A DNA stretch of 32,000 bases from Candidatus Saccharimonadota bacterium (GCA_965227835.1 OZ245768.1:930001-962000), one strand, 5' to 3'; shown: positions 666 through 28,822, counted from the stretch's first letter. Notes: generated by a model from the sequence alone, not told the origin. Numbers and translations: made by a program.

Positions 666-1235
666 AAGGGGCTAAAATAGTTTTTACCAGTTTAAATCTA
701 ACTGATTTCCATCAATGGTTTTATCCTTATGTTGCTGATGTTGAACATAATTTTTTATCATATCCAAGTCAAGTCAAACTGTACTTACATAGTATCATCT
801 ACTCCAGAAATTCTTCGAGTACAGTCATTTCTTCTTACTATGTTTGTTATGAAGTATTATTGCACTCTTTCATTTCAATCTTCACAGAATTTCTGCAACA
901 GAGTATTTTGGAGATATCCTCAAAACGAGATGAACATGATCTATCGTTATATTTCATTTTAATATCTCAAAATCATATCTCTTTGCAAGTTCATGAAATG
1001 TGTCTCGTATATCTTTTCTAACTGATTGAAAAAGTATTTTTTTTCGGTACTTTGGTACCACCACTATGTGGTAAGTGCAGTCCCAATTCACATGGGACTG
1101 CTTTGCGTATTTGTGGGACATATCTTTAAAAAGTTATTCCCCTCCTAGGTGCTTCCTAGAAGATTATACACAACTACCGGAACGGTAAAACCTCCACTAC
1201 TCGCACCAGCAGAGCTGGTGGTTTAGTGTTGGATT
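619..1235 (-). mobile_element. IS200/IS605-family insertion (tnpA only), inserted at the stop codon of LRR paralog 1
   Basis: The empty site is visible at 3670-3690 (gatgataattaaattttt); here the same sequence is split by ~617 bp. There is no obvious target duplication. Subterminal perfect hairpins are typical of the family: CTACCAG-n5-CTGGTAG (627-645), AGCCCCT-n3-AGGGGCT (657-673) and CACCAGC-n3-GCTGGTG (1204-1220). Confidence 0.85.
684..1121 (-). CDS. tnpA: IS200-type Y1 (HUH) transposase TnpA, 145 aa, intact
   Basis: Hand translation: MSHKYAKQSHVNWDCTYHIVVVPKYRKKILFQSVRKDIRDTFHELAKRYDFEILKGNITIDHVHLVLRISPKYSVAEILGRLKGKSAIILHNK...FWSRGYYVSTVGLD. It carries the HxH (HVHLV) motif and the catalytic-Tyr region. 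Four in-frame TGA fall where Gly is expected (LKG, ILGRLKGKS). Length is 438 nt. Confidence 0.9.
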
Positions 1236-1658
1236 AATTAAATTTTTATTTAAAAAATAATGGTAGATAAAAATAACATTCTTGAAGAAAAATTAACACC
1301 TAAAGATAGACTAAGAATTATTCTAACTCCTGAAGATTTCAAGGACTATGAAAGAATGGTTGAAGAATCTTACGGTAAAATATCTTGGGAGAAATTGGAA
1401 GAATATAGTGAATTTGATGAAAATCAAAACTTGAAAGGTATATATTGGAAGGGGAATTTAGATTTAAGTTGAACTTCTATAACAAGCTTAGGGAAATTAA
1501 AATATGTTTGAGGATATTTAGATTTAAAATGGACACCTATAACCGATTTAGAATATTTAGAGAAAATTTGAGGATATTTAGACCTAGAATCAACTTACAT
1601 AAAAGATTTATGAGAATTAAAAGAAGTTTGGGGAAGTTTAAATTTAGCTTGAACTAAA

Positions 1659-2864: not shown

Positions 2865-3626
2865 TAAAATAAAAAGTTTAGGAAAATTGACAAAAGTTTG
2901 AGGCTTTTTAAATTTAAAATGAAGTTCCATAATAAATTTAGGAGATTTAGAGAAAGTTTGGGGAAGTGTAAATTTAGATTGAACTAAAATAGAAAGTTTA
3001 TTTAAACTAAAAGAAGTTTGAAGAAGTTTAGATTTATCTTTTACTTCTATAACAACCCTAGGAAATTTAGAGAAAGTTTGAGGAAGTTTAGATTTATCTT
3101 TTACTTCTATGATAAGCCTAGGAAATCTAAAAGAAGTTTGAGATAATTTAGGTTTGAGATGAATATCAAGAAAAAATATAAAAAATATAATAAAAGAGAT
3201 AAAAGATAAAAAAATACATATATGAGGTGAAATTATATATGATTGAAGAGCTTTAGACATTTATAAAGAATTTTCAATTTTCTTTAACTACTTGTGAGAA
3301 TTTAATGATGATGAAAATTTAGATAATTCAAAAATAGAAAAAGAAAAACAGGAATTTATCAAAAAATACTGAACTAGTAAAACGAAAAGATCATATTCAG
3401 TAAAAAAAGATTTAAATTTAATTGCAAACATATTTTTTTACTTTCTTATAGATAATATCATAGAAAAGTGAGCTAAAACTAAAAATCAGATAGAAGAATT
3501 AAAAAAAAGTAATAGAGATGAAAAAAGTATAAAAGAAGAAATAATAAGTTTAAAGTTAGCATTACACAATAAGTTGGATGAAAAATTTAGTGAAATAAAA
3601 CATTACTTTTGAGAAGATATAAAAAA
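2865..3626 (+). repeat. 762-bp block identical by eye to 4095-4856 (3' halves of LRR paralogs 2 and 3), part of a ~1.23-kb tandem gene duplication
   Basis: Line-by-line comparison found no mismatch until 3627/4857. The 5' parts (1215-1658 vs 3655-4098) differ at a few scattered positions. Confidence 0.85.
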
Positions 3627-3699
3627 AAGATTAGAAGATGAATTTAAAATGGAAATGACAAAGAATAGTGATGATAATTAAATTTTTATTTAAAAAATA

Positions 3700-4983
3700 A
3701 TGGTAGATAAAAATAACATTCTTGAAGAAAAATTAACACCTAAAGATAGACTAAAAATTATTCTAAATCCTGAAGATTTCAAGGATTATGAGAGAATGGT
3801 TGAAGAATCAGAAGGTATTATTTCTTGGGAGAAATTGGAAGAATATAGTGAGTTTGATGAAAATCAAAACTTGAAAGGTATATATTGGAAGGGGAATTTA
3901 GATTTAAGTTGAACTTCTATAACAAGCTTAGGGAAATTAAAATATGTTTGAGGAAATTTAGATTTAAAATGGACACCTATAACCGATTTAGAATATTTAG
4001 AGAAAATTTGAGGATATTTAGACCTAGAATCAACTTACATAAAAGATTTATGAGAATTAAAAGAAGTTTGGGGAAGTTTAAATTTAGCTTGAACTAAAAT
4101 AAAAAGTTTAGGAAAATTGACAAAAGTTTGAGGCTTTTTAAATTTAAAATGAAGTTCCATAATAAATTTAGGAGATTTAGAGAAAGTTTGGGGAAGTGTA
4201 AATTTAGATTGAACTAAAATAGAAAGTTTATTTAAACTAAAAGAAGTTTGAAGAAGTTTAGATTTATCTTTTACTTCTATAACAACCCTAGGAAATTTAG
4301 AGAAAGTTTGAGGAAGTTTAGATTTATCTTTTACTTCTATGATAAGCCTAGGAAATCTAAAAGAAGTTTGAGATAATTTAGGTTTGAGATGAATATCAAG
4401 AAAAAATATAAAAAATATAATAAAAGAGATAAAAGATAAAAAAATACATATATGAGGTGAAATTATATATGATTGAAGAGCTTTAGACATTTATAAAGAA
4501 TTTTCAATTTTCTTTAACTACTTGTGAGAATTTAATGATGATGAAAATTTAGATAATTCAAAAATAGAAAAAGAAAAACAGGAATTTATCAAAAAATACT
4601 GAACTAGTAAAACGAAAAGATCATATTCAGTAAAAAAAGATTTAAATTTAATTGCAAACATATTTTTTTACTTTCTTATAGATAATATCATAGAAAAGTG
4701 AGCTAAAACTAAAAATCAGATAGAAGAATTAAAAAAAAGTAATAGAGATGAAAAAAGTATAAAAGAAGAAATAATAAGTTTAAAGTTAGCATTACACAAT
4801 AAGTTGGATGAAAAATTTAGTGAAATAAAACATTACTTTTGAGAAGATATAAAAAATAGGTTGAAAGATGAATTTGAAAAAGAAATGGCAGATCTAAATA
4901 TCTATAAGAAAAAATCTAAAAATAAACTTAAATCAAAATACATAAACATAAAAAATATAGTAAAAAAATTATTTAAGAGCTAA
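3700..4983 (+). CDS. LRR protein paralog 3, intact, 427 aa (N-terminal domain, >=8 LRRs of 20 aa, charged/coiled C-terminal domain)
   Basis: A continuous 1284-nt frame with 18 in-frame TGA (Gly) and no TAA/TAG, checked codon by codon. Repeat pattern: LDLSGTSITSLGKLKYVGGN / LDLKWTPITDLEYLEKIGGY / LDLESTYIKDLGELKEVWGS / LNLAGTKIKSLGKLTKVGGF ... There is no signal peptide and no SD. Confidence 0.85.
3901..4380 (+). repeat. Tandem 60-bp coding repeats (one 20-aa LRR per unit, 8 units)
   Basis: The period is exactly 60 nt, so units line up with the 60-nt sequence lines. Consensus is gatttaNNNtgaactNNNataNNNNNNttaggaNNNttaNNNgaagtttgaggaNNNtta. The same repeat type occurs at 1-110, 1455-1658 and 2866-3150. 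Confidence 0.9.
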
Positions 4984-5071: not shown

Positions 5072-5107
5072 TACTTGTTTTTACATTTCAAAATAGGAGA
5101 AATTAAA

Positions 5108-5503
5108 GTGAAAAACAAAAAACTAGTCAAAAAGACATATGTTTGTTTTATGTCTCATAAATCACTTTTGCCAAAAGAATTATTGATAGAAGTGAAAGAG
5201 CGTAATCCAGAAAAATTGGATATTCCCGTTGACTGTATAGCTTTTCAATTTTTTGATGTTATTGGTAGAGAAGATAAAAACAATCACAAAGAAAAAGCTA
5301 GAAAACATAGTAACAGGGTAAATATATCCAATTTATACTATGTTGATGCAACTATTAAGGATAAGGACCAAGTTACTAAGGAAAGAGGAGAGGATTGTCT
5401 ACTACTTTTTAACATGTCAGTAAATGGTTGGGAAAAAGTCGTTCAATGTAAGAATGGTCACATAGAACCACTTAGAGTAGGTGATATCTTTGTTACTACA
5501 TAG
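5108..5503 (+). CDS. Hypothetical protein, 131 aa, TGA-free, GTG start
   Basis: AGGAGA sits 7 nt upstream of GTG 5108. The track's TTG 5075 start has no SD. It ends at TAG and is followed by a hairpin. I recognise no family. Confidence 0.55.
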   Translation: MKNKKLVKKTYVCFMSHKSLLPKELLIEVKERNPEKLDIPVDCIAFQFFDVIGREDKNNHKEKARKHSNRVNISNLYYVDATIKDKDQVTKERGEDCLLLFNMSVNGWEKVVQCKNGHIEPLRVGDIFVTT

Positions 5504-5526
5504 TAATAAAAATTATATCCTATTTG

Positions 5527-5560
5527 TTAAGCCTTCTTTATAAAAAGAAGGCTTAACTTT
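5527..5560 (+). terminator. Stem-loop terminator after the 5108 gene
   Basis: TTAAGCCTTCTT-tataaa-AAGAAGGCTTAA, followed by cttt. Confidence 0.55.
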
Positions 5561-5565
5561 TACAC

Positions 5566-5605
5566 AAAAAAAGAAGCCAACTCTTACGAGTTGGCTTCTC
5601 CTATT
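5566..5605 (-). terminator. Intrinsic terminator of the four-gene operon (bidirectional)
   Basis: GAAGCCAACTC-ttac-GAGTTGGCTTC. It is flanked by an A7 run on the + strand (a U-run for the minus transcript) and by ctattttt on the other side. Confidence 0.8.
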
Positions 5606-5649
5606 TTTGTTAAAATAAACCATACTTTTCTTGAAACAAGAAAGTAAAT

Positions 5650-6435
5650 TTATCCACAAAAGCCTTCATTGGCAGTTTGACTGAAAGAACCAGCATTTTG
5701 ACTAGCTCTTACAGCAGACTGACTGAAAACTTGAAAGGCCTTTCTAATCTCACTTTGAGAATTTCCAGGTGTGAGAATCCATTCATCACGAACACCCATA
5801 TCCGAAAAAACTCGCTTGAAATTAGTACGACCATCATCAATACCCATACCTGCAATAATGTGAACTTCACTAAGAAGCATATCATTTACAATTTTTTTTA
5901 CCTCAGGTGATTCTGCACGGGAATGTTCATCACATCCATCAGTAATAAAAAGTGTAGCTGTACGACAGGAAACTCCACTATCATTAAACTGCTTACATTT
6001 TGCAAGCACTGTTGCCAAGGTAACAATAGCTTTATCAAATAAAGGAGTTCCACCCATAGGAGAGTATTGCTGACTTATATCTATGTCTCCAGATATTGGC
6101 TGACAAGGATACAAAACTCCACTATTCATAGCAATAGCATAAACTAGTATGCTATCTTTTTGCTTAGAATCATATAGAGATTTAATTACCTCATCATGCC
6201 CATCAATAACAGTTTGAGTATTGTTGGAATAACCAATAGAACTTGAATCATCAGCCAATATTGAAACAATCATGACTTCGCTTGATTCAATATCAATATC
6301 CTCAGGAGTCAAACCAAGACCTTCTTGGATTTGAGCTCCCATATCATTGATTTTTATGACTTCACGAGCCTCAGGGGATATGGCCCCTTCTTGCTCAGAA
6401 CCATCAAAAAGATCTTCTAAATTTTGATTACTCAT
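5650..6435 (-). CDS. von Willebrand factor A (vWA) domain protein, TerY-like, 261 aa
   Basis: The MIDAS motif is complete: ILADDSSSIG (DxSxS), MGGTPL (Thr) and LFITDGCDEH (Asp). SD AAGGAGA lies 7 nt upstream. There is no in-frame TGA and the stop is TAA. Confidence 0.8.
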   Translation of the reverse strand: MSNQNLEDLFDGSEQEGAISPEAREVIKINDMGAQIQEGLGLTPEDIDIESSEVMIVSILADDSSSIGYSNNTQTVIDGHDEVIKSLYDSKQKDSILVYAIAMNSGVLYPCQPISGDIDISQQYSPMGGTPLFDKAIVTLATVLAKCKQFNDSGVSCRTATLFITDGCDEHSRAESPEVKKIVNDMLLSEVHIIAGMGIDDGRTNFKRVFSDMGVRDEWILTPGNSQSEIRKAFQVFSQSAVRASQNAGSFSQTANEGFCG

Positions 6436-6466
6436 TTTTAATTCTCCTTAATAAAAGAGGGATGAT

Positions 6467-6502
6467 GGTAGGAAGAAAAGGTGTAAAGCTTAACTTCCTA
6501 CC
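6467..6502 (-). promoter_or_regulatory. Intra-operon stem-loop between the hydrolase and vWA genes
   Basis: GGTAGGAAG (6467-6475) pairs with CTTCCTACC (6494-6502) around an 18-nt loop. It lies in the 73-nt gap, which is the only sizeable gap in the operon. It could be a partial terminator or an RNA-stability element. Confidence 0.4.
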
Positions 6503-6508
6503 AATATT

Positions 6509-7555
6509 TTAACTAAAATTTGGCCAGTTACCAAAATCCACGGATTTGACAACATTCATACCCGCATTGCGATAACGATCCAAAGCTGCTTCAGCTTGAG
6601 GAGTATAATCAACCAAAATTCCACCCTGACCATCAGGAACTGTAACAGCAGACATACAGTCTTCCATTACATAAACCTTTTTGGAAAGTTCAGAATTTTT
6701 GCTACTTATCTCACCAATTAAATCATCAATAGATGACAAGACACAGTGGCTAGAAGCCTGACCAGCGATAATGATACGATCATAGTTCAACAAAGAATTG
6801 AAAAAATTCGTATTTTTCTGAGCAAGCTGTGTTCCCTTATTATCATGACGACCTAATACTTCAGGCCTCAAAATTGAATAATTCTCTGTAAGAGGATGTC
6901 CACCTTTTATTTCACAAAGACCCTGACTTCCTCTAACATAGCTGTGAAACAATCTTGCTTCCTCTATTACTCCAGCCAATGCATGTCCAGGAGAACCAAG
7001 AAAACAATGTTCAGGCCACAAAAAAAGCTGATATTTACCTTCTTTTTCAAGTTCTTCACAATAGTAAATACACTGTTTCAAAAGCCAAGAATAAGCTCCT
7101 TTATCACCTGTAACTGCTTCTGTAACCAAGGGATTTGGTTTACAAATACCTTTTTTGATATCATCAGCAGTTACAATAGTATGGGAATCAGGGTTTGATC
7201 CATCCTCTCTTACCCAAAAAAATGGGAAAAAGATTTGGATAGGAAAGTGAGTATCAAGAGTGGTAGTAATTTGAGAAATACTACCCATATTTTTATGGAT
7301 AAACTCTGCTATCCTAGTAGAATCCTCTATGGCTCCTTTACCACTTCTACCTGCAACATACAAAGAACCTTCAGGGAAACAGAAATCCTTTTGCATATCT
7401 ATAAGAAGTAAAAGTGTTTTAAGCCTATCCATACTGGCAGGTTTGATGGAATTGGTAGACCTAAAATCATTTGCTTCTGTCGAAATCCCTCTTCGATCCG
7501 GCTGATAATCATAAAGCCCAGAGTTATTAGGGTTGAAAAAACTTGGTATATTCAT
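6509..7555 (-). CDS. Isochorismatase-fold cysteine hydrolase, PncA (nicotinamidase)-like, 348 aa
   Basis: Motifs are colinear with E. coli PncA. LLLIDMQKDFCFPEGSLYVAG matches LLLVDLQNDFCAGGALAV (catalytic Asp). LDTHFP matches DWHP. LWPEHCFLGSPGHAL matches FWPDHCVQNSEGAQL. EIKGGHPLTENYS matches HKGENPLVDSYS (Lys). AGQASSHCV matches GLATDYCV (nucleophile Cys). SD AGGAGA lies 7 nt upstream. There is no TGA. Confidence 0.75.
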   Translation of the reverse strand: MNIPSFFNPNNSGLYDYQPDRRGISTEANDFRSTNSIKPASMDRLKTLLLLIDMQKDFCFPEGSLYVAGRSGKGAIEDSTRIAEFIHKNMGSISQITTTLDTHFPIQIFFPFFWVREDGSNPDSHTIVTADDIKKGICKPNPLVTEAVTGDKGAYSWLLKQCIYYCEELEKEGKYQLFLWPEHCFLGSPGHALAGVIEEARLFHSYVRGSQGLCEIKGGHPLTENYSILRPEVLGRHDNKGTQLAQKNTNFFNSLLNYDRIIIAGQASSHCVLSSIDDLIGEISSKNSELSKKVYVMEDCMSAVTVPDGQGGILVDYTPQAEAALDRYRNAGMNVVKSVDFGNWPNFS

Positions 7556-7569
7556 AATGTTTTCTCCTG

Positions 7570-9417
7570 TTATTTCATCTGGATATTCCAGATATCTTGG
7601 TTAGATTTAATAGCTATTAAGCCAGAAGATCCCGGCAATAAAAAGCTATGAGAGTCAACGAAGCGAGCAGTATCACGAAACTGCTTTGTTTCAACTAAGC
7701 TAGAGTTTTGTGCTTCTATACGCACAATTCCCTCATCACTAGATGAAAAAAGCATATTTCCTATAAAACATTTGCCTCGTATATTTGAAAGCCAATCTCC
7801 AGAGTTCTGATTTGATTGGCTTGAAGCTATAACCTGTCCTTTACTATCTATAAAGTAAGCTGAATTTATTACTTCTCCATTTTGTTTGATAGAAGTAAGA
7901 AAGCATACTCTATTTTTAGAAAAGAAACAAGTAGCATCTATTAGTTGTCCTTTGATACCAGGTATTGATATACTATCATTTATACCTCTGTAATCAGTAT
8001 TAAATAAGAAAAATACACTCAAACCTCCTCCAAAGTAAAAGCCAAAACCCAAACTATCTCCTACCCAAAACAAGGTTCTGTTAGTCAAAACTTGCCCTAC
8101 GGTTTCAGGATAAGAAGGTCCCATATCAGAAACTTTTATCAAACTACCATTTCTTATAAAGAAGCTATTTTTAGAATTAGCTCCCAAAATAGGTAGTCTT
8201 CCATAAGTTTCAGTATCTATGGTTTGGGTTTCATTTTTTCCTAAGATGACAACTTTGTCGTTTTTTCCAACAAGGGTTTTTTCTCCATTTATACGAAAAC
8301 GAATATATGGATCCAAATCACCTTTGACAAAAGAATTATCTCCTTCACGAAAGTAGCTACCTTGAGAGTGATATATGTACCTAAGTTTACCATCTTGAAC
8401 AGTTGCATAAAGTATTTTTCCAGAAGTTGAAAAAATCTTTTTAGCAGAAACTTTTCCTAAGATAACCTCTTTTTCTCTTATGGATGCAGTTTTTTCAGCA
8501 ATTACAGAAAGTAAATTTCCTTGCTCATCAAACTTAAACCTATCCATAATAGAAATTGGGAATTCCTCTCTTTTATCTTCTTTGAATACTTCTTGCAAAT
8601 ATTGCAAAAACGAATCTGGAAGAGTAGAAAGAGGTTTAGCTGGTTTTGGGTATATTACATCATCTGAAAATAGTGTTATGCGTTTTAATGGACGAACTCT
8701 TTCAGGAACTCTATCCTTTTTATCTTTAGGTCTATATACACCACCATAAGGGCCTACATAAATCAAAGTTTGCATAAGCATAATTAGATATGCATACCAA
8801 TCTGACAATTGATTGTGAGGTTTTACAAGTTTAGTAGATTTTGATTTTTTATCACATATCAATGGATCTACAAACTTATTGGTAAAAACATTACAAAAAT
8901 AATTCCCAAACTGGACACTATCAAAATCTATCAAGTAAGGCTTATCTTTTTTTACCAAAACATTCAAGTCATTGAAATCTCCTATCACAACTCCAGCTTT
9001 ATGTACGGATTTAACTATAAAAAACAGATTTTTGAATATTTCTATAACCTGTTTATCACTGACAAACCCTTGTCTAAAACTTTTATTGGAGTATCTAAGA
9101 AGTACCTCTGCATCTTTCACCATATCCATTGTATAACCTACGATTTGTTTTTTTTGATCAAAAGCAAAATCAATAGGTGTAATGACAAAAGGGGAAAAAC
9201 CACTTGGTAGTTTCTTTAGTTTTGTTTGGTGCTCCTTTATTTTTTGAGAAGCACTTTTTTGATCTGAAGGAGAGTTTGCAAAGATGGGATGTTCTGGTGG
9301 TTTAAAGAGCTTTAAAGCCCTAGTTTTTGATATTTCATATATTTCAGCCTCTCCCCCACTACCAATAATTTGGTCAGGAGAAAGATTTACTGATTTATTA
9401 CGTATCAAAACTTTCAT
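7570..9417 (-). CDS. Ser/Thr protein kinase-like protein (YegI/TerY-P-type) with a ~320-aa beta-rich C-terminal domain, 615 aa
   Basis: Kinase motifs are the glycine loop IGSGGEAEIYE, the Lys in RALKLFK, the catalytic loop VIGDFNDLNVLV and the DFG equivalent LIDFDS. The C-terminal half is rich in G/S/beta-strand repeats (...ILYATVQDGKLRYIYH..., ...LFWVGDSLGFGFYFGGG...). SD AAGGAGG is present. There is no TGA. Confidence 0.75.
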   Translation of the reverse strand: MKVLIRNKSVNLSPDQIIGSGGEAEIYEISKTRALKLFKPPEHPIFANSPSDQKSASQKIKEHQTKLKKLPSGFSPFVITPIDFAFDQKKQIVGYTMDMVKDAEVLLRYSNKSFRQGFVSDKQVIEIFKNLFFIVKSVHKAGVVIGDFNDLNVLVKKDKPYLIDFDSVQFGNYFCNVFTNKFVDPLICDKKSKSTKLVKPHNQLSDWYAYLIMLMQTLIYVGPYGGVYRPKDKKDRVPERVRPLKRITLFSDDVIYPKPAKPLSTLPDSFLQYLQEVFKEDKREEFPISIMDRFKFDEQGNLLSVIAEKTASIREKEVILGKVSAKKIFSTSGKILYATVQDGKLRYIYHSQGSYFREGDNSFVKGDLDPYIRFRINGEKTLVGKNDKVVILGKNETQTIDTETYGRLPILGANSKNSFFIRNGSLIKVSDMGPSYPETVGQVLTNRTLFWVGDSLGFGFYFGGGLSVFFLFNTDYRGINDSISIPGIKGQLIDATCFFSKNRVCFLTSIKQNGEVINSAYFIDSKGQVIASSQSNQNSGDWLSNIRGKCFIGNMLFSSSDEGIVRIEAQNSSLVETKQFRDTARFVDSHSFLLPGSSGLIAIKSNQDIWNIQMK

Positions 9418-10261
9418 TTACTTCCTCCTTTGTAGAATATTTTTTTTTGATAACTACTAGTGTAGTATCATCTTTGAGAAGACCTGGTAATAACCTTCCA
9501 TTGTAAATACTTTCTCTGTTAAACAAAGAAAGTTTTCTTGTAATCATACTGGAGTTATCAACATATTTATCTTCTTCCCAAAATTGGCTAATATCTCCAA
9601 CGATATTGTTGGTATTTGGAATAGTTTTGTCACTAGCTTTTATCAAATCAAGAACTCCATCGCTACCTAATAGTATGTTGTCATATTGTTTAGGTTCTAG
9701 AATTTCTTTTATACTGATATCAAGAAGTGAAGGGTTTTCATCAAATAAAGCTGAACCTGTGATATTATACATAATATATGGTGGAGCATTAGCTGGAAAT
9801 GGTCCAGACTCTTTTATTTCACCATCTATTATATATACCCCATCTCCACAAGAAAATATATAAGCTTTTCCACGAACAATAACTATTCCTATTATAGTAA
9901 ACAAAAAATATTGGTTTACTATTTCAGAAATACTATCACCCATACTTTCAGCTAAAACTGAGAGCTTGCTTATAAAACTCATTTTTATTCTATTCCAAAA
10001 ATTGCTTTTTAACTGAGGATTATCTCCAGATTGAAGTAAACGATTTATCTGATCAAATATCAATTTTGAGAGAATCTTAGAAGCTATTTTTGCTCCTACT
10101 TCGCAGTGTTTAGAACTACCACAGCCATCTGCAATTACCGATACCAACACATCATCATTTTTCTCCCAAGAGAAACTATCATGATTATTGGTAAATCCGG
10201 GTTGTCCCGTTTTTATATGGTCAGTTCCCGCTATGGAACCTCCTGCTATTCTAATATCCAT
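9398..10261 (-). CDS. PP2C-family Ser/Thr phosphatase (PP2C_2-like), 287 aa
   Basis: MDIRIAGGSIAGTDHIKTGQPGFTNNHDSF..., VSVIADGCGSSKHCEVGAKIA..., SCGDG... and LLGSDGVLD match the metal-binding Asp motifs of bacterial PP2C. I chose ATG 10261 because AGGAGA lies 8 nt upstream. The track's 10402 start adds 47 low-complexity residues with no SD. The 3' end overlaps the kinase start by 20 nt. Confidence 0.75.
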   Translation of the reverse strand: MDIRIAGGSIAGTDHIKTGQPGFTNNHDSFSWEKNDDVLVSVIADGCGSSKHCEVGAKIASKILSKLIFDQINRLLQSGDNPQLKSNFWNRIKMSFISKLSVLAESMGDSISEIVNQYFLFTIIGIVIVRGKAYIFSCGDGVYIIDGEIKESGPFPANAPPYIMYNITGSALFDENPSLLDISIKEILEPKQYDNILLGSDGVLDLIKASDKTIPNTNNIVGDISQFWEEDKYVDNSSMITRKLSLFNRESIYNGRLLPGLLKDDTTLVVIKKKYSTKEEVNESFDT

Positions 10262-10402
10262 AAATAGTTTCTCCTGTTTTTTCATAGATGTTAATGAACT
10301 AAAGGTGTTGTTTATACATTTAAAGCATTTGTAAATAAAAAATTTTTTGCTTTTAAATAATAAACAATAGCTTTTAAATTTAAATGTCAAAATGACACTC
10401 AT

Positions 10403-10752: not shown

Positions 10753-10846
10753 TTTTATATGAAAATGAAATGACTTTACAAGTATATTAGAAATATAATG
10801 AAATCTTGAACAAATGAATGAAAATTACAATTTTTGAGAAAAATTT

Positions 10847-10874
10847 TTGACATTTATAAAAATAAATATATAAT
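10847..10874 (+). promoter_or_regulatory. Consensus sigma70 promoter (TTGACA-16-TATAAT)
   Basis: TTGACA at 10847-10852 and TATAAT at 10869-10874. Together with the terminator at 11137-11170 it delimits a ~290-nt transcription unit. Confidence 0.6.
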
Positions 10875-10984
10875 CGTATTCACGAGAATAGAAAATTTGC
10901 TTTTTCTGTTTAATTTTTAAACCTTTAAATAGCAAATCTATATATCTCGTATAGTTTTGCTGTTTCTTATTCAGGAAAATTGTT

Positions 10985-11131
10985 ATGTGGATTTTTATTT
11001 CCGCTTTATCAGCTTCATTATCTCTATATGAGGGACTCGAAAGTGAAAATAATTTTTTTCTTTCGCTTTGTCTGTTCAGTTCATTCGGATTTATATACTT
11101 TATCAATGAATATAATAAACAGCAAAACTAG
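10985..11131 (+). CDS. Possible small hydrophobic protein, 48 aa (the unit may instead be a non-coding RNA)
   Basis: MWIFISALSASLSLYEGLESENNFFLSLCLFSSFGFIYFINEYNKQQN. AGGAAA lies 6 nt upstream of the ATG. The stop is TAG, 6 nt before the terminator hairpin. There is no TGA. It is the only plausible ORF in the promoter-terminator unit. Confidence 0.3.
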   Translation: MWIFISALSASLSLYEGLESENNFFLSLCLFSSFGFIYFINEYNKQQN

Positions 11132-11136
11132 AAAGA

Positions 11137-11170
11137 CTCCCCCAGTTCAAACTGGGGGGTTTTCTTTTTT
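11137..11170 (+). terminator. Strong intrinsic terminator
   Basis: CTCCCCCAGTT-caa-AACTGGGGGG, followed by ttttctttttt. Confidence 0.85.
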
Positions 11171-11216
11171 CAAAAAATCAAACTAAATATAAAAATTAGA
11201 GATAAGTTATTTTCTT

Positions 11217-11308
11217 TCCCCTCTCTCTGTCCCATCCCTTCTGTTCTATCCCCTCTCCTTCCAAAAGGAGAGGGTTAGGGTGAGGGACTGCTCGGGTTAG
11301 GGTGAGGT
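11217..11308 (+). repeat. GC-rich hairpin repeat, copy B
   Basis: ttctgttctatCCCCTCTCCttccaaaaGGAGAGGGttagggtgagggactgctcgggttagggtgagg. It is a direct repeat of copy A, ~545 bp away. Confidence 0.85.
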
Positions 11309-16083: not shown

Positions 16084-19083
16084 ATGTTTGATCCATCAAA
16101 AATAAACTTAGATTTAGAAGGCAATGAAGGTGAAAATACTCCTGAAGAAAGCAAAAAACAGGAGGAAACAATAATTAATGAACAAGATAATATAGATTCA
16201 TTAGAAAATAAAGAATTGGAAACCAAAATTGAAAACAAAGAGGAAAATCAAAACCAAGAAGAAAAAGAAAATGAGGTTTTAATAGATAATATAGATGAAG
16301 AAAAAGTGGAAGAAAAAAAAGAAAACTTAGATGTCTTTGAAGAAAAAGAAGTAAATGAAACAGAACAAAATCAAAACCAAAAACAAGAAGAAGATGAAGA
16401 AATAAAAAAAGAAAATAGGACTCCAAACGAAAATGAGTCTTCAAATCAAAATCAATCCCCGATACAAGATAAGATAGAAGAAAAAGAAGAAGAAAAAATT
16501 ATATTTGATATAAATATAAACTCTCTTGATTATTTAATGAAATACCTAGTATCAAAAGAATATGATTTTTTTGTACTAGAGCCAGAAGAAGACAAAATAA
16601 AAGTAAGCTTTAGAAAAGACAATTTAGAAAAAGAACTGAAATATATAAAATACCCTACCTATACAAATATATTGCTCAAAGCAAAAAGTCTCACAAAATT
16701 AAAAATAGAAGAAACAAACATAAGCCAAGAATGAACAGCTGAAGTATCTATGAACAAAAAAGTTTATAAAGCTTTATCAAAAACAGCACCAAGCACATCC
16801 TGAGAAAAATTATTTTTCAAAATGGCAAGTACAGAAAAAAAAGCAGAAACGAAAAAGAAAAAGGGGATGAGTTTTGGAAAAATGATGTCAATATTTTGAG
16901 GTTTATTTTTCACAGCAATATTGATTTGATGAGTATTTATATCAATAGTACTTTTCAACTCAAACTCCATATCTGACCTACAATTTTTCAATAATCTATG
17001 AGTAAACACAAATGCCATAAAAGATTTTGCAGCAAAAGTAGTAAATTGAGTTTTTGGAATGATACTTGTAGTTGAAATAATAATACTTTTTATCTTCTCA
17101 TACAAAGCACTTTTAACAAAAAAAGATTTTAAAAAAGATAAAATAACAAGAATAATAATATCTATGTTTTTCCTAGTTTTATCAGTAATAACCTTTATAA
17201 CTTGGATGTTTTTAGCTCAAAAAATTAACTCACTGAAAGGATTGAATTATTGAAAAGTTGAATTTTACGATAACTCCAAATATCTATCAGAACTATTTTG
17301 AGAACAATGATCAAAAATAAATATATCAGAAAAAATTATATGACCTATAAATATAAGATTCAACAACAAGGAATTTATCCAAAAACTAGTAGATGACTGA
17401 TTTTCTCCGCAATCCGTAACTTGGGTAATATGAAAAACAAAAAAAGAAGTAGCAGTAGAAGATTATGAAACAACATATGAATTTAGAGAAAAATGACTTA
17501 CAGATGTAAACCTTGTCATAAGTGGTACAAATATAAAATGAGAAATTGAAGAAATAGAAAAAAATATATGAAAAATAAATATTTCAAACACCGTAAAAAT
17601 AGAAGAGATAAAACTAGACAACGGATGATCAAAATTTGTATTTGATGCTTCTGATCTAAGGTCTCTTTGAAAAGTAAAATGGTATTATATACCTTCTTTG
17701 GAATGAAAAACAGATGATGAGATTAATAATATAGTGGCAAAATCTCTAAGTAAAGAAAAATTAGAATGATATAAATTTAATTCTAAAAATATATTTGAAT
17801 GAGAGGAGTATTATTGAATAAAAATAGTAAACTCTTCATGAGAACCAGAAGAGCTAGATAAATTATTTATTATATCAAAATGAGATAAAAATGAAGTATC
17901 ATGAGAAATAGAAAGTATAAATGATCCAAATGATGATAAAAAATATAGCTTTGTATTTAAAAACCCAGAAACAAATATATGAGAAGCATATATAAGCAAA
18001 TATGTTTGGAGAATACAGGATTTTGGTGATTCTGGTGAGGAAAACTATGTAGTTATAGAAAAAGATGCAAATCTAAGTAATTTAGAAAATTCAAGTAAGA
18101 TAAGCTATACTTTTAAAAAACAGTGAATACATAATGTAGTACTTGATATAATAGACTCTGATTGAAAAACACAAACTTTTACAGATAAAATAGAGATTAA
18201 AAAAAGCCTAGATTTACTTACAAAACTAAGCTTCAAAGTTGATAATAGAGAGTTGAAATATGGTGAAGACATTATATATGAAAGAGAAAATAATACTTAT
18301 TACCTAGAAAATATCCTTGCTCCAAGTTCTATAGAAATAGATGCTAATAAAATCAGAACTACGAGTTGAAGGTATGGATTAAAAACTGTAGAGTTTGATT
18401 TGGACAGTGATTGAAGTTTTGAAACGATAGAGAGAAAAACAAAATATGATTTAATCAAAGGTTGAATAAAAAGCTTTAAGGTGAAGTATAAATTTGTAAA
18501 CAAAAACATACAAGAAGAAATAATTGATATAGTTGAAACTATTCATATAACTTGAACAGATAGAGAAGCAATACTAGATTTAAAAATAATAAAGCCAAGT
18601 TCTTATGTACCTGTTATAGTGAAATTTGATGCATCAAATTCTAAGGTAAATTGAAAAGATATAGAGAAATTTATATTTGATTATGGAGATTGAACAGAGC
18701 CTGAGGAAAGGGATTCTATAAATAGCTGACGCAGGTATGTAGAGGCATGAGAATATGATATAAAGCTAAGTGTAGTTACTTCTGATTGATCAAAGTATGA
18801 TTTGAAGAAAAAGCTTATTTTGAGAAATAAACCTCAAAAGGCAGTAATAAGTACGAGTTTAAAAAAAGCTCCAGTTTATCAAACAATTGATTTTTCGGCT
18901 GAAAAGTCTATATGAGAAGTATGAAGTTATTTTTGGGATTTTTGAGATGGGAGTACATCCACTAAAATGTCTCATAGTCATTCTTATGATAAAGCTTGAA
19001 AATATAGTATAAAGCTAGAAATAGAGTTTAGTAACAAAAATATATTGAAAGATGAAATTGAAATGGAAATATATGAAGATTAG
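16084..19083 (+). CDS. Large membrane protein with an acidic low-complexity N-terminus, a GspE/PilB-N-like segment, 3 TM helices and multiple extracytoplasmic PKD domains, 999 aa
   Basis: An exact 3000-nt table-25 frame, checked line by line with no TAA/TAG. PKD signatures are FDASNSKVNGKDIEKFIFDYGDGTEPE...YVEAGEYDIKLSVVTSDG and IDFSAEKSIGEVGSYFWDFGDGSTS...HSYDKAGKYSIKLEI. TM segments lie at ~16885-16960, 17050-17103 and 17152-17217. Confidence 0.85.
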
Positions 19084-20170
19084 GAAATGTGAAAATTAAA
19101 TGAATTTGGTAATGGTCCTTTAGATAGGTACCACCAATTTTAGCAAGATTATCTAGGATAAGGACAGGGAAATTATTAAATTTTGTAGGAAGAATTATAT
19201 TACAACTTCTAAGTTTTTCAATAGGACTTAAACCGTTCATACCTATTCAAAAAGAAGGTCTATAATTATTATAAGTATAAATATATTTACTACTATGGTT
19301 TAAAAAATTAGGAAGAGATTTCATGCGATCAAGATAAGGTCTATATAATTCTTCATCATCAGTTCTATGAGATCTCTCTACAATTCATTGAAGATATTTT
19401 TTTCAAGCAGGAATACTCTTAAAACAGCAATTTATATTATTTAATATAGCATTCCACTGATTTTCCTTTCTCTTACTTCATCCACAAAAATCAGCAGGGC
19501 CATTATCTCATTGAAATTCCATATGATAATATATTCACATACTCCTAAGATATGTAGCTATAGTAAGTATAAACATAAGACCAAATTCAGAAGAAAGACT
19601 ATGAGAATAAGCTATAAATTTATATTTTGTTTTAGCACATATATATGTCCATTGATATAAAGGAAGATTATATTTTCTTAGTATAAAACAAAGTTCTCAT
19701 AAAGCTTCAAAATCTTCTATATGCTTTGTATCTACTTGACCATACTCAAAGGGAAGAATATTTTGATAATCGTATAGAGGTTTACTATCTCATTTTCTAC
19801 GAGAATAATGATGCTTTTTTACTTTGTTTCTTTTTAGTATATTTCATATAGTAGAGGAAGAGAATGTTATTCCATATCTGAGGAATAAATACTTTGCTAG
19901 ACGTACTCTTCAATATTTTGTTTTATTTCGTTCTTGTAATACAAGTCATTCTAAATCAGAAGATGTTTTTTTATTATGAGGAGTCTTAGGAGCTCTTGAT
20001 ATATTTTCTATAGGACCATCTCTACTTCTTCTTACTGTTTTACGAGAACATCATAATATATAAGCTGTTTTACTTACGTTTCCTTTGTTTTCTTCAAGTA
20101 TCGACCTCGCGAGGATTCTTGCTGATTCTACTCCTTGCTTAGTACACATTTTTTCATATAATCATTTCAT
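19028..20170 (-). CDS. IS481-type DDE transposase (HTH + integrase core), 380 aa
   Basis: The HTH is ...NVSKTAYILGCSRKTVRRSRD. The catalytic triad context is YGQVDTKHI, EFQGDNGPADF and IVERSHRTDDEE. It is a 1143-nt table-25 frame. The ORF has no stop inside the IS and reads through the left IR into flanking DNA, ending at TAA 19028-19030, antisense to the last 56 nt of the PKD gene. Confidence 0.8.
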
Positions 20171-20285
20171 AAGAGGTTTGGGATTATAAAATAAAATTTT
20201 TTACAAAATCTATTATATCCTCATCCTCTTTTTTACACAATTCCATATCAATAAATAGTGGTACCTATCTACTGGTACAGATAAT
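19108..20285 (-). mobile_element. IS481-like (rve/DDE) insertion sequence, ~1.18 kb
   Basis: Imperfect terminal IRs share TAGATAGGTACCAC (19121-19134) and GTGGTACCTATCTA (20258-20271). The element is flanked by a perfect 15-bp direct repeat AAATTAAATGAATTT (19093-19107 and 20286-20300). Confidence 0.8.
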
Positions 20286-20304
20286 AAATTAAATGAATTT
20301 TTTC

Positions 20305-20332
20305 TTGACTTATATGTAATAATTTATATAAT
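20305..20332 (+). promoter_or_regulatory. Cassette promoter 1 (TTGACT-16-TATAAT)
   Basis: TTGACT at 20305-20310 and TATAAT at 20327-20332. The conserved leader ttattaacttttccaatttttcaaaaAGGAGtttttt leads to ATG 20378. Confidence 0.65.
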
Positions 20333-20377
20333 ATAGACTCTTATTAACTTTTCCAATTTTTCAAAAAGGAGTTTTTT

Positions 20378-20839
20378 ATGGAAAAAAATGATTCGGGTTA
20401 TGATCCTATAAAAATTTTTTTTATTTCAATTCTTTTTATTATTGCCCTTATGCCGCTTATAATTTCTATAAATGCGAAAGAACAAAATGCAAATAAGTTT
20501 CTAGAACATTATGGGGTAAAAATAGATATTTTAAATTCAACCATAAGAATTAGATCAACTTTGGTTTTAGAAAGTTTTGGTAATTCTTTCCCCCATTATG
20601 ATTATGATGGATATAGCCAAACTCATCTAGCAGATATTGATCTTTCGTATGAGGAAAAAGAAATTGTAATTGGATCTTTAGCTCAAAATTTCCCTTCTAA
20701 TACTAAGCTAAGTTTTTTAAATTTTCCAGAAAATGAAAAAGGAGAACTTTTATCAATTATAAATGAAAATTTTCCTAATCATTACGAAAGTATAGATTTT
20801 GTTTATAGTAGAGAAGAGGATAAATATCCTAGCTTTTAA
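20378..20839 (+). CDS. Cassette protein 1: small membrane-anchored protein, 153 aa, TGA-free
   Basis: SD AAGGAG lies 6 nt upstream. The N-terminal TM is IKIFFISILFIIALMPLIISI. The C-terminal motif ENEKGELLSIINENFPNHYESIDFVY is shared with the 21060 and 22650 products. The stop is TAA. Confidence 0.7.
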   Translation: MEKNDSGYDPIKIFFISILFIIALMPLIISINAKEQNANKFLEHYGVKIDILNSTIRIRSTLVLESFGNSFPHYDYDGYSQTHLADIDLSYEEKEIVIGSLAQNFPSNTKLSFLNFPENEKGELLSIINENFPNHYESIDFVYSREEDKYPSF

Positions 20840-20893
20840 CATTTAAAAACTAAAAAGGAGCTATAAAAAATTGAGATTTTTAGAAAAAATCTC

Positions 20894-21068
20894 ACGAGAG
20901 AGCCAGCTTTGCTGGCTCTCTTTTCTTATTTTTTAATATTATGTTTTAGAATTAAATAAAAAACTTAAGATTTCAAGATTTTTTCTTGACTTATTTTAAA
21001 ATATTATTATAATATATAGTACTTATTAAGTTTTCCAATTTTTCAAAAAGGAGTTTCTTATGGAAAAA
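20894..21068 (+). repeat. 175-bp terminator-promoter-leader-ATG module, copy 1 (near-identical to 21500-21675)
   Basis: acGAGAGAGCCAGCtttGCTGGCTCTCTtttcttattttttaatattatgttttagaattaaataaaaaacttaagatttcaagattttttcTTGACTtattttaaaa...TATAATatatag.acttattaa.ttttccaatttttcaaaaAGGAGttt.ttATGgaaaaa. It contains the terminator hairpin 20896-20921 plus T-run, and promoter 20986-21013. Confidence 0.9.
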
Positions 21069-21494
21069 TTTAATGTGCCTGTGCTAAAATATATGAAAAA
21101 AGGCATTATATCTTTAGTACTTTTGGTATTTACTTATTGGGGATATACATTTTTTGATAAACTGCCTGACTCTCCGATTGAATTCATGGGTGTTCCTCTT
21201 GTTATTATTGTATGTATTTGGTTTCTTTTAGGAAATTCCAAAAAAAATTCAGCTTTAATTGCTTGCTTATTTTTATTAGCTTTTGCAATTTTTGGTATGA
21301 AAAATTCAATATCAAAACAAAGTGAACTAAATGAAATATTACAAGCATACAATGTATCTGGAGATTTTTATAGTAATGGAATACTTAAGGTTTTCTCAGT
21401 AAATAGTGAGCTTTCGTCTCAAAGAAAAGGAGAAATCAAACAAATTTTAGGAGGCATATATCCTAGTCATGAAATAGTATTTGTGACTAAATAG
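21060..21494 (+). CDS. Cassette protein 2: small integral membrane protein (3 predicted TM), 144 aa, TGA-free
   Basis: The SD is AAGGAG. TM segments are GIISLVLLVFTYWGYTFF, MGVPLVIIVCIWFLLG and ALIACLFLLAFAIFGM. The C-terminal domain YNVSGDFYSNGILKVFSVNSELSSQRKGEIKQILGGIYPSHEIVFV is shared with the 22650 product. The stop is TAG. Confidence 0.7.
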   Translation: MEKFNVPVLKYMKKGIISLVLLVFTYWGYTFFDKLPDSPIEFMGVPLVIIVCIWFLLGNSKKNSALIACLFLLAFAIFGMKNSISKQSELNEILQAYNVSGDFYSNGILKVFSVNSELSSQRKGEIKQILGGIYPSHEIVFVTK

Positions 21495-21499
21495 GATAT

Positions 21500-21675
21500 A
21501 CGAGAGAGCCAGCTTTGCTGGCTCTCTTTTCTTATTTTTTAATATTATGTTTTAGAATTAAATAAAAAACTTAAGATTTCAAGATTTTTTCTTGACTTAT
21601 TTTAAAAATATTATTATAATATATAGCACTTATTAACTTTTCCAATTTTTCAAAAAGGAGTTTTTTATGGAAAAA
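21500..21675 (+). repeat. Terminator-promoter-leader-ATG module, copy 2
   Basis: It differs from 20894-21068 by a few substitutions and one extra A. It has the terminator hairpin 21502-21527, TTGACT 21592-21597 and TATAAT 21615-21620. Confidence 0.9.
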
Positions 21676-21690
21676 GTAAAAAAGTTTTAG
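21667..21690 (+). pseudogene. Remnant of a third cassette gene (MEKVKKF-stop)
   Basis: It has the same promoter, leader and ATG-GAA-AAA start as cassettes 1 and 2. The frame stops after 7 codons, immediately before the IS200-like element. Confidence 0.6.
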
Positions 21691-21694
21691 CTTT

Positions 21695-22370
21695 TCTTCT
21701 ACCCCGGCCTGAAGGCACGGGGCTTTTATTTGTACTGAAATTTAAAGCTCTATCTCTTCAATCTTATTCTCTTCTTCTCACTGTTGTTCCACATAATTAG
21801 ATATTATTTCTCAATTTATCTCTCATACACTAGATACAAAATATCATACTCACCATATATTTCATGTCTTCCAATACCATCTCTTAATTTCTTTGTAAAA
21901 ATACCTCTTTATTGCCTTAGAACTTTCTCACTTTATATGTCATACTATTGTAGATATTGGTTTAGTTAACGGTATCCTACAATACATATGTACATGATCT
22001 TCTTCCATTCATATCTTTATTATTATTACTCATAGCTTTTTACTTATTCATCTTATGATCTTTTCCAATCTATCTTGTATCTCTTTTTCATGAATGGATT
22101 TCTGTATTTTGTTATCCATACTATATGGTATCTGACATCATATGTCGCATGACTACTTTTTTGGTATTTCATTCTCTCTAGTGTTAGTTTTTAACACTAT
22201 TTTATTTATTCTATTGATTTTTTACACTTTTTTCTTTAGAATCGGCCTGAAGGCAACGGGGTTTAAAACCCTATGTCACAACACATCTCATTTATTCAAT
22301 TTCTATCACTTACACCTTCGGTGTCTTAACTATCTAAAGATAGGGGTTTTTATCCCGATGTGTTGAAATT
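21695..22370 (-). mobile_element. Second IS200/IS605-family element (a different lineage from 619-1235), inserted in cassette 3
   Basis: It contains a Y1 transposase gene and structured ends. These are CCCCG-gcctgaaggca-CGGGG (21702-21722), a second ggcctgaaggca at 22244-22255, CAACACATC...GATGTGTTG (22279-22366) enclosing ACACC-ttc-GGTGT, and CTATCT-aa-AGATAG. The boundaries are approximate. Confidence 0.7.
21742..22172 (-). pseudogene. tnpA: IS200-type tnpA with a frameshift
   Basis: Frame a reads MKYQKSSHATYDVRYHIVWITKYR and then stops early. Frame b continues ...KSIHEKEIQDRLEKIIRGISKKLGVIIIKIGMEEDHVHMYCRIPLTKPISTIVGHIKGESSKAIKRYF...WKTGNIWGVGYFVSSVGEINGEIISNYVEQQ. The total of 431 nt is one nt short of a multiple of 3, and the shift is near 22095 (agaaatcc). 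A sequencing error is possible. Confidence 0.75.
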
Positions 22371-22649
22371 AAGTCAATAATCTTTCCTGTAATTTTGCTT
22401 TTAGGTACATTTGCTTATATTTATCTCAAAACTACCCACTTTTTATAAAAAGTATACCTATATTTTACTTTAAATAAAGGGAAATTAAGCTATTTTTAGT
22501 GTTTTATCTTTAGTATTTTATAAATGACTTATTTAAGCTAACTTTATCTTTATAAAATTCAATCAATATAAAATCTCTGTTTTTACTTATATAAAGGTAA
22601 AAAATAAAATATAAAATACAAAAAACTGGGTAGATTTAAGATTTATAGT

Positions 22650-22865
22650 TTGTCATATATTGATAAAAGTGTTTCAAAATATGTAGAAGATTTACTAAAT
22701 GAATATGATATTTCTGCATCATACAATCCTGGAAAAGGTATTATTAGTATACATATGAAAGATTCTAATCTTTCTGACAAACAAAAAGGTGAAATTATAA
22801 ACATTTTGAATGATGAATACCCAAAAAGGGGTGTATTATTTAAAAATGCTAGGTTGAAAAGGTAA
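22650..22865 (+). CDS. Cassette-family domain-only ORF, 71 aa, probably the 3' remnant of a decayed cassette gene
   Basis: The only start is TTG, with no SD or promoter module upstream. It encodes YDISASYNPGKGIISIHMKDSNLSDKQKGEIINILNDEYPKRGVLF, homologous to the C-terminus of the 21060 product. A cassette-type terminator follows. Confidence 0.4.
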   Translation: MSYIDKSVSKYVEDLLNEYDISASYNPGKGIISIHMKDSNLSDKQKGEIINILNDEYPKRGVLFKNARLKR

Positions 22866-22882
22866 CCAAAATCGTTTTTTAA

Positions 22883-22915
22883 AAGAGAGCCAACAAAGTT
22901 GGCTCTCTTTTCTTG
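22883..22915 (+). terminator. Cassette-type terminator variant
   Basis: AAGAGAGCCAAC-aaa-GTTGGCTCTCTT, followed by ttcttgattttt. Compare GAGAGCCAGC-ttt-GCTGGCTCTC in the other cassettes. Confidence 0.8.
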
Positions 22916-23023
22916 ATTTTTAATTGATTCTTAGTTATTCAAAAAAATTTTTGTAATTAACTCTTTATTGTTATTATTATTTTAATTCCTAAAATACAAA
23001 TTTTAATCTTTAAATATAAAAAA

Positions 23024-28781: not shown

Positions 28782-28822
28782 ACCTCACCCTAACCCTCTC
28801 CTTTGGAGGAGAGGGGATAGAA
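28782..28822 (-). repeat. GC-rich hairpin repeat, copy C (inverted relative to A and B)
   Basis: The reverse complement reads ttctatCCCCTCTCCtccaaaGGAGAGGGttagggtgaggtt. Confidence 0.8.

Follow-up and report, generated by a model that had tools for sequence, protein, structure and literature searches.

How does a bacterium that reads TGA as glycine come to carry a tandem set of small genes without a single in-frame TGA, each placed behind nearly the same promoter and leader? This question is raised by an array of three co-directional monocistronic units (termed cassettes) in the 32-kb stretch OZ245768.1:930001–962000, which is called the window here and from whose first letter all positions are counted. 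The array is located between a gene for a PKD-domain membrane protein and trxB. The explanation favored here, with a probability of about one half, is that the units are self-contained, code-neutral accessory cassettes with membrane-anchored products, that they are turned over by recombination between their modules and that they belong to a gene pool which extends beyond cells using genetic code 25. The array, with the insertion sequence (IS) at its left side, has the following features (aa, amino acids; SD, Shine-Dalgarno; TM, transmembrane; ORF, open reading frame).

19107–20285, minus strand: IS481/IS3-like insertion sequence between the PKD gene and module 1
20286–20377, plus strand: module 1, with −35 TTGACT (20305–20310), −10 TATAAT (20327–20332), leader and SD GGAG (20368–20371)
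20378–20839, plus strand: cassette 1, 153 aa, one N-terminal TM span, acidic C-terminal region, TGA-free, TAA stop
20894–21059, plus strand: terminator 1 (stem 20896–20922, T-run) and module 2 (−35 at 20986, −10 at 21008–21013, SD at 21050–21053)
21060–21494, plus strand: cassette 2, 144 aa, two to three TM spans, C-terminal domain of about 60 aa, TGA-free, TAG stop
21500–21666, plus strand: terminator 2 (stem 21502–21528) and module 3 (−35 at 21592, −10 at 21615–21620, SD at 21657–21660), the second copy of the terminator-module unit
21667–21690, plus strand: 5′ stub of cassette 3, ATG GAA AAA GTA AAA AAG TTT TAG (MEKVKKF), truncated by the IS200 element
21688–22366 (approximate ends), minus strand: IS200-family element, recognized by its Y1_Tnp match, hairpins and codon counts
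22367–22649, plus strand: decayed rest of the cassette 3 body, with a TM-like stretch, IIFPVILLLGTFAYIYL, in the frame of ORF4
22650–22865, plus strand: ORF4, 71 aa, TTG start, without SD or strong promoter, intact C-terminal domain, TGA-free, TAA stop
22881–22921, plus strand: terminator 3, AAAAGAGAGCCAACAAAGTTGGCTCTCTTTT and a T-run, the last element ahead of trxB

Repeated modules and the genetic code of the window

The 23-mer TTTTCCAATTTTTCAAAAAGGAG occurs exactly three times, at positions 20349, 21031 and 21638, where 100 shuffles give an expectation of 0. Each copy lies 3′ of a TTGACT-16/17-TATAAT sequence that scores 11/12 (20305, 20986 and 21592) and is followed by ATGGAAAAA. The layout of a module is a near-consensus sigma-70 promoter, a leader of about 37 nucleotides (nt), a strong SD and ATG-GAA-AAA. 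The promoter spacer is 16 or 17 nt long, from a run of four or five A residues, and the predicted transcription starts are near 20339, 21020 and 21627. An earlier interpretation of this DNA (the sequence-only reading) had described an expression module that recurs three times and takes in the first three codons (MEK), with bodies that diverge thereafter. The three copies of the 23-mer, each with its promoter and ATGGAAAAA, are in agreement with this, and conservation ends at codon 3. The coordinates and feature descriptions given in that reading are correct.

Modules 1 and 2 are about 70% identical over 80 nt. The other two modules are much closer to each other, i.e. positions 20894–21001 and 21500–21607 show 100% identity over 108 nt. 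A 175-bp near-identical unit in which the module is fused to the preceding terminator had been reported in two copies; these are 175/176 nt long and differ in 4 of 176 columns (97.7% identity). The first copy is made up of terminator 1, module 2 and the first 9 nt of cassette 2. Three related terminators, AGAGAGCCARC...GYTGGCTCTCT with a T-run, are found at 20896, 21502 and 22881. Their hairpins are perfect 12-bp GC-rich stems that are followed by the T-runs. Judged from these promoter and terminator calls, each cassette appears to be individually promoted and terminated, which is also how the array was first described.

Two further observations concern these sequences. In the segment at 20852–20893, between the cassette 1 stop codon and terminator 1, AAAGGAG occurs a second time, here with TTG after it, and immediately 5′ of the terminator 1 stem there is a perfectly paired hairpin of 9 bp, GAGATTTTT-AG-AAAAATCTC. 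The UUUUCCA/UGGAAAA hairpin that covers the start codon gains no stability over shuffled sequences (z −1.25 to +1.24), and a riboregulator reading of the leader was therefore rejected.

The genetic code of the window is evident from its genes. Under the standard code just 15 ORFs of at least 120 aa are found across the 32 kb, and reading TGA as a sense codon gives normal gene packing. The FAD motif (GxGxxG) of trxB appears, as VIIV-G-A-G-S-A-G, only when TGA is Gly, and trxB translated in this manner matches Pfam Pyr_redox_2 at 7e-54. The nearest leucyl-tRNA synthetase (LeuRS) loci among GTDB genomes are those of Gracilibacteria metagenome-assembled genomes (MAGs), at 61%–72% identity. On account of the ORF packing, the FAD motif, the Pfam match and the LeuRS neighbors, the window is Gracilibacteria DNA of 27% GC that uses genetic code 25 (TGA = Gly).

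Native genes of the window spell 300 of 432 Gly codons (69%) as TGA, the other 132 being GGN. In recA, trxB and leuS the proportion is 66%–84%, thus TGA is not avoided in these native housekeeping genes. None of the 20 Gly codons of cassette 1, cassette 2 and ORF4 is TGA (10 GGA, 7 GGT, 2 GGC, 1 GGG). The difference from native genes is significant (Fisher P = 1.4e-10), and the probability of 0 of 20 at the native rate is 5e-11. Out of frame, each of the three ORFs has 8–10 TGA triplets. With no in-frame TGA in 368 codons and with TAA, TAG and TAA as stops, the cassette ORFs are therefore identical under code 11 and code 25. The sequence-only reading had noted the absence of TGA in passing as a neutral feature. 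The absence itself is correct for the three ORFs; under code 25, however, it is a strong anomaly. That reading had missed both the TGA = Gly genome and the foreignness of the module SD to native genes.

An SD motif (GGAG, GAGG or AGGA upstream) is present ahead of 0 of 18 TGA-containing ORFs of at least 100 aa, as compared with five of six TGA-free ORFs (P = 1.4e-4). The leaders of the TGA-containing native ORFs are A-rich. The cassette modules display the SD AAAGGAG, a motif that native genes do without. SD motifs are likewise rare ahead of TGA-containing ORFs at 12 other loci, 11 of which are titled Gracilibacteria, Peribacteria, Altimarinus or Patescibacteria and one just "bacterium". A sigma-70-type promoter or a strong terminator does not mark a gene as foreign in this DNA, as a unit in native context at 10847–11159 bears both.

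Cassette content in two strains

A search for the exact sequence of cassette 2 led to an independent metagenome contig in ENA, L001, that is about 97% identical to the window in the flanks. Its gene order is PKD gene, one module, cassette 2, one terminator and trxB. The IS481-like element, cassette 1 and everything from module 3 to ORF4 are absent from L001. With the IS481-like element excised, the sequence 5′ of the module 1 −35 box is orthologous to that 5′ of the L001 module. The L001 module has the upstream flank of module 1, and from the −35 box on it is of the module 2 type. The L001 terminator follows terminator 2 in its left flank and terminator 3 in its stem and right flank. Both haplotype junctions are inside repeated elements, i.e. 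the −35 region and the terminator stem. Because the breakpoints between the one-cassette and three-cassette haplotypes fall inside them, the repeated modules are taken to be recombination substrates. The junctions are as homologous recombination between modules would give, either by deletion of a cassette circle or by the reverse. The sequence-only reading had remarked that the layout invites recombination between modules, and the two-strain junctions support this.

The cassette 2 coding sequence is identical in L001 at 435 of 435 nt, whereas adjacent 435-nt bins of the PKD gene show 17–24 differences. This hints at a recent exchange and is suggestive only.

The IS481-like element has a 347-aa TGA-containing ORF, to which the weak rve_3 and HTH_8 Pfam matches belong, and inverted repeats at 19121–19139 and 20253–20271. 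It is flanked by a 14-nt direct repeat, AAATTAAATGAATT, at 19093–19106 and 20286–20299, and L001 carries the uninterrupted target site. The element is a simple insertion. At 19028–19106 the transposase frame runs about 26 codons past the end of the IS into the 3′ end of the PKD gene, therefore its C-terminus is encoded partly by flanking DNA.

A second insertion is located in cassette 3. The tnpA gene of the IS200 element extends from 22172 to 21742 on the minus strand, reads YHIVWITKYR...HVH and has one frameshift near 22085–22090. After correction of the frameshift it matches Pfam Y1_Tnp with an E-value of 1.1e-32 at profile positions 3–121 of 121. Together with a stub that ends after MEKVKKF, this bears out the earlier statement that an IS200-like insertion breaks cassette 3. 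All 12 Gly codons of tnpA are TGA, and the element is for this reason considered native to the code-25 lineage. Similar subterminal hairpins are present at 21702–21722 and 22243–22263, and a structured left end at 22279–22366. The TM-like stretch IIFPVILLLGTFAYIYL and ORF4 are in the same frame with six in-frame TAA/TAG stops between them, and ORF4 is probably the 3′ remnant of cassette 3.

Cassette proteins and the neighborhood of the array

The 153-aa product of cassette 1 has one hydrophobic span, in keeping with its earlier description as a single-TM protein. The cassette 2 product had been described as a 144-aa protein with three TM spans. The length is correct; two of its hydrophobic spans are clear and the third is weaker. 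No lipoprotein or signal-peptide consensus is found in the cassette proteins.

Cassette 2 and ORF4 display 35% identity over 60 aa (pairwise E = 3e-8). With this similarity and no strong promoter, ORF4 is what it had been taken for, a promoterless ORF that carries the family domain. Cassette 1 shares just a motif of about 20 aa, E-x-K-G-E-[IL]-x-x-I-[IL]-N-[DE]-x-[FY]-P, with E-values of 1e-4 against ORF4 and 0.02 against cassette 2, and its C-terminal region has an EK(G)E..I...FP motif twice. In a search with a profile made from cassette 2 and ORF4 alone, cassette 1 is the top non-self match among 23,534 six-frame segments, at a score of 13.5 bits that is near the best chance hits. Membership of cassette 1 in the domain family is plausible but weak and rests partly on the shared architecture and module. 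Thus the C-terminal domain proposed for all the products is confirmed for cassette 2 and ORF4 and reduces to a short motif in cassette 1. On the values above, its proposed occurrence twice in cassette 1 is doubtful.

An AlphaFold2 model of the cassette 2 domain, made from a 4-row alignment, gives the order alpha-beta-beta-alpha-beta (pLDDT 86.9, pTM 0.71). The top folds in a Foldseek search of the PDB are PrgK D2, the ring-building motif (RBM) of FliF, SpoIIIAH (TMq 0.74, root-mean-square deviation 2.1), PrgH, EscJ and the DolP BON domain. The modeled domain resembles ring-building and BON domains at the level of fold only. A model of cassette 1 from the single sequence was of low confidence (pLDDT 55) and was not used.

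Sequence searches place the family in one species so far. Word-index searches with cassette 1, cassette 2 and ORF4 returned only the window's own proteins, and an exhaustive profile search of 1.84 billion protein representatives gave no homologue of the three. Two long repeat proteins from the profile search (P0004, P0005) match a helix motif of about 20 aa and were judged uninformative. Searches of Pfam, PHROGs, PADLOC, NCBIfam and PDB sequences gave no significant match for the cassette proteins; a DUF5663 match to cassette 1 (E = 0.018) is weak and under the curated cut-off. Blastn against GenBank phages (INPHARED) and PLSDB plasmids gave just short AT-rich chance matches. Protein-pattern scans of IMG/VR found no relatives; for scans of this type the domain alignment was too divergent. 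A 22-mer of the module, sought elsewhere as the sequence-only reading had proposed, is absent from GTDB species genomes, JGI metagenomes and IMG/VR. Exact-sequence look-ups of cassette 1 and of a kinase gene in the window (see below) found no further contigs. At the LeuRS-anchored loci of other Gracilibacteria, trxB, the PLD-like gene and the PKD gene are not nearby and no cassette-like domain is present. A related species, found through a trxB that is 68% identical (L082), lacks the cassettes, and there trxB is preceded by sodA and ribF.

The genes around the array include those for the PKD membrane protein, trxB, a PLD-like gene, leuS and recA. No toxin, secretion, phage or defense gene is found in the 32-kb window, which extends about 20 kb to the upstream side of the array and about 9 kb to its downstream side. 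Pfam scans of ORFs of about 130 aa or longer, translated under code 25, show transposases only of the DDE (IS5-like, IS481-like) and Y1 (IS200) types.

A TGA-free island is located at 5075–10402, mostly on the minus strand, with 0 of 121 Gly codons as TGA and a GC content of 30%–37%. Three of its genes have clear SD sites, and outside the cassettes there are no other SD-led genes in the window. The higher-GC, TGA-free island is clearly foreign. The cassettes differ from it in that their third-position GC content (GC3) and non-Gly codon use are in the native range. Products of the island are an isochorismatase-like protein, a protein kinase (weak PD-T4-6/MkoA PADLOC matches), a PP2C phosphatase and a possible vWA-like protein (by eye; no Pfam match). 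The gene layout looks like a TerY-P-type triad. At the island edge a bidirectional terminator (5569–5602) has a stem core, GCCAAC...GTTGGC, in common with the cassette terminators.

A second strain-variable, self-contained unit is found on the plus strand at 10847–11170 (window 10754–11237). It has a perfect TTGACA-16-TATAAT promoter, a strong terminator (11138–11159), a predicted transcript of about 290 nt that folds much better than shuffles (z = −6.7) and a 48-aa TGA-free hydrophobic ORF (10985–11131) behind AGGAAA. The unit is located between two direct repeats of about 70 nt that contain CCCCTCTCCTTCCAAAAGGAGAGGGTTAGGGTGAGG. L001 lacks the unit and retains a single hybrid repeat. The unit matches no Rfam or Pfam family and has the look of a type-I-toxin unit or of a novel structured RNA.

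Other repeats are present in the window. A near-duplicate gene array at 3–4983 encodes leucine-rich-repeat-like proteins (LxLxGTxIxxLGxLxxVGG, by eye; no Pfam match), and an IS5-like element at 1658–2713 (DDE_Tnp_1 at 4e-24) appears to interrupt one of the copies. In L001 a 98%-identical IS5 copy adjoins the PP2C gene instead. A GC-rich palindromic repeat at 10695 and 11250 has a partial copy upstream of leuS (28783–28822, 88% over 42 nt; L001 2038–2079). This suggests a dispersed element of the repetitive extragenic palindromic (REP) type or a miniature inverted-repeat transposable element (MITE).

Origin of the cassettes and comparison with known systems

According to the favored explanation the repeated modules would act as portable homology arms, and recombination between them would add, delete or swap whole cassettes. 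The cassettes would descend from, or may still circulate in, a pool that is not confined to code-25 cells, one possible such pool being code-11-compatible phages of Gracilibacteria. A pool of this kind would account for the absence of TGA and for the presence of SD sites where native genes have none. Had paralogues this divergent arisen inside the lineage, they would have gained synonymous GGA-to-TGA changes. Each product may be placed in the membrane and expose its small alpha-beta-beta-alpha-beta domain, which, if the structural model is right, could oligomerize at the membrane surface. In the strain of the window, we would guess, the IS200 insertion has inactivated cassette 3. Also a guess is an envelope-protective role of the products, of the immunity or superinfection-exclusion type, since a membrane anchor with a small domain, a strong autonomous unit and variability between strains fit such proteins.

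Several points weigh against this explanation. The GC3 of the cassettes is 0.14, compared with 0.16 in native genes, and non-Gly synonymous codons are in the native range. Long residence with selection against TGA and import from an AT-rich standard-code donor both fit this native-like codon use. No homologue, and with it no donor pool, was found in any collection searched (protein representatives, IMG/VR, GenBank phages, plasmids). The 32-kb window has no phage, plasmid or recombinase gene. Divergence between the two strains is patchy, with some bins showing just 1–3 differences. The comparison covers two genomes, and the change between them may have been a gain or a loss. No fold match has an E-value below 0.03, de novo designed mini-proteins are among the matches, and the model, of a generic fold, was built on an alignment of four rows.

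The main rival holds that the cassettes are native, lineage-specific paralogues formed by tandem duplication in place, with fast diversification of the bodies and with modules kept uniform by gene conversion or by selection for expression. TGA avoidance and SD sites would then reflect selection for very high or special translation and not foreign ancestry. Native-looking codon usage and GC3, the same locus in both strains, the confinement of the family to one species and the host's use of sigma-70-type promoters and intrinsic terminators elsewhere, e.g. in the unit at 10847–11159, all favor it. However none of the 20 Gly codons is TGA although 10 GGA lie one synonymous step away, and divergence to 35% identity or less should have yielded TGA. 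In addition, the Gly spelling of recA, trxB and leuS shows the opposite preference, and the only other SD-led genes in the window belong to the clearly foreign island. We regard native paralogy as possible, although doubtful. A different origin, which seems improbable, is that the module is a recombinase-free platform for homology-driven capture and exchange, whose cargo is selected to be code-neutral for shuttling between a code-25 symbiont and standard-code bacteria or their phages, with the cell that hosts the symbiont as one possible partner. TGA avoidance would then be an adaptation for crossing the genetic-code barrier and not a leftover of recent import. Such an adaptation would agree with native-like GC3 and the complete lack of TGA.

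A variable surface-protein system for attachment to host cells, in the style of Mycoplasma vlp/vsp/vsa and switched by spacer length or recombination, would explain the conserved 5′ module ahead of divergent bodies, the 16- or 17-nt promoter spacer and the cassette content that differs between strains. Gracilibacteria are also thought to depend on host cells (PMC11452946). It is nevertheless quite improbable: only three codons are conserved and lipoprotein or signal-peptide consensus is lacking, runs of four or five A are too short for slipped-strand switching, neither an invertase or recombinase gene in the window nor internal tandem repeats were found, and TGA avoidance and the SD are left unexplained. 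Capture by site-specific recombination at hairpin repeats, as in integrons or rAID-like arrays, would be in keeping with co-directional cassettes that have hairpin-containing repeats between them. However the 32-kb window has no tyrosine recombinase, the perfect 12-bp GC-rich stems with T-runs are terminator in form and not attC-like, and every cassette has its own predicted promoter. The haplotype junctions are in two different repeated elements, as homologous recombination predicts, and site-specific capture is very improbable. Scarcely credible is the view that the array is an assembly artefact, a concern raised in the sequence-only reading, or that its ORFs are meaningless products of AT-rich DNA. 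Cassette 1 and ORF4 do each come from one contig. Against this view stand the recovery of the module, cassette 2 and terminator in the independent L001 assembly, three bodies of unique sequence set between short repeats, and stop-free ORFs of 144–153 codons in 27% GC DNA, with a domain shared by cassette 2 and ORF4 at E = 3e-8.

Codon reassignment is usually viewed as hindering the exchange of genes. In this case a code-25 chromosome carries fully code-neutral small genes, driven by translation signals that are unused in the host's own genes, and these cassettes are gained or lost whole between two close strains via recombination in shared control modules. The main interest of the locus is in these code-neutral, SD-led chromosomal cassettes in a recoded genome, together with direct evidence of module-based turnover. 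If the case is general, lists of TGA-free, SD-led ORFs would be a simple finder of recently imported or shuttling genes in Gracilibacteria and Absconditabacteria, and the cassettes would be candidates for envelope functions relevant to the host-dependent lifestyle. The module, judged by its sequence, may also provide a ready-made and apparently strong expression cassette for organisms without genetic tools.

The cassettes have likenesses to several known systems. Morons are autonomous promoter-gene-terminator units in prophages. Like these, the cassettes are predicted to have their own strong promoter and factor-independent terminator around a single gene, they encode small membrane proteins and they are accessory content that varies between strains. 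Unlike morons they are outside any prophage (no phage gene in the window, no PHROG match), they are in tandem behind near-identical modules and their composition is host-like. The moron and immunity labels of the sequence-only reading are not sustained, as there is no prophage, toxin or secretion context in the window and no family match. Its integron analogy also fails: the window shows neither an integrase nor an attC-like site, and each cassette comes with its own predicted promoter. Integron cassettes are promoterless, attC-bounded units under a common Pc, and Pfam scans of the window ORFs show no IntI tyrosine recombinase beside the array.

The Mycoplasma vlp/vsp/vsa genes form a tandem cluster with conserved promoter, leader and start region ahead of divergent bodies. 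The cassettes likewise have a highly conserved 5′ region and divergent bodies in tandem, but they have no lipoprotein signal, hypermutable tract, invertase or internal repeats. With RBM/BON proteins (SpoIIIAH, PrgK/EscJ, FliF, DolP) the modeled product may have in common an N-terminal TM anchor followed by a small domain of predicted alpha-beta-beta-alpha-beta order (TMq 0.65–0.74). It differs from them in showing no sequence similarity and only Foldseek E-values of at least 0.03, and no gene for a secretion, flagellar or sporulation partner is present in the window. The insertion in cassette 3 is like IS200/IS605 elements in its Y1 (HUH) transposase (about 130–150 aa class; E = 1.1e-32 after frameshift correction).

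The rAID-1 orphan-immunity arrays of Bacteroidales have two defining features, a 5′ XerD-like recombinase and genes homologous to immunity families (Ross et al. 2019, bioRxiv 10.1101/471110). The cassette array has small co-directional genes, repeated intergenic sequences and variable gene content in common with those arrays. It differs in that it numbers just three cassettes, has no XerD-like recombinase by a scan of the window and has no significant Pfam, NCBIfam or PADLOC immunity family. TGA-free, code-11-compatible phages are predicted to infect Gracilibacteria and Absconditabacteria (Liu et al. 2023, PMC10746230). Unlike these phages the cassettes are chromosomal and flanked by housekeeping genes, with no similarity in IMG/VR, INPHARED or PLSDB, and no phage link was found for them. 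Like the phages, the cassettes have no in-frame TGA, use TAA/TAG stops and read the same under code 11 and code 25. By analogy, a code-neutral mobile pool of the kind proposed here would have its precedent in these phages.

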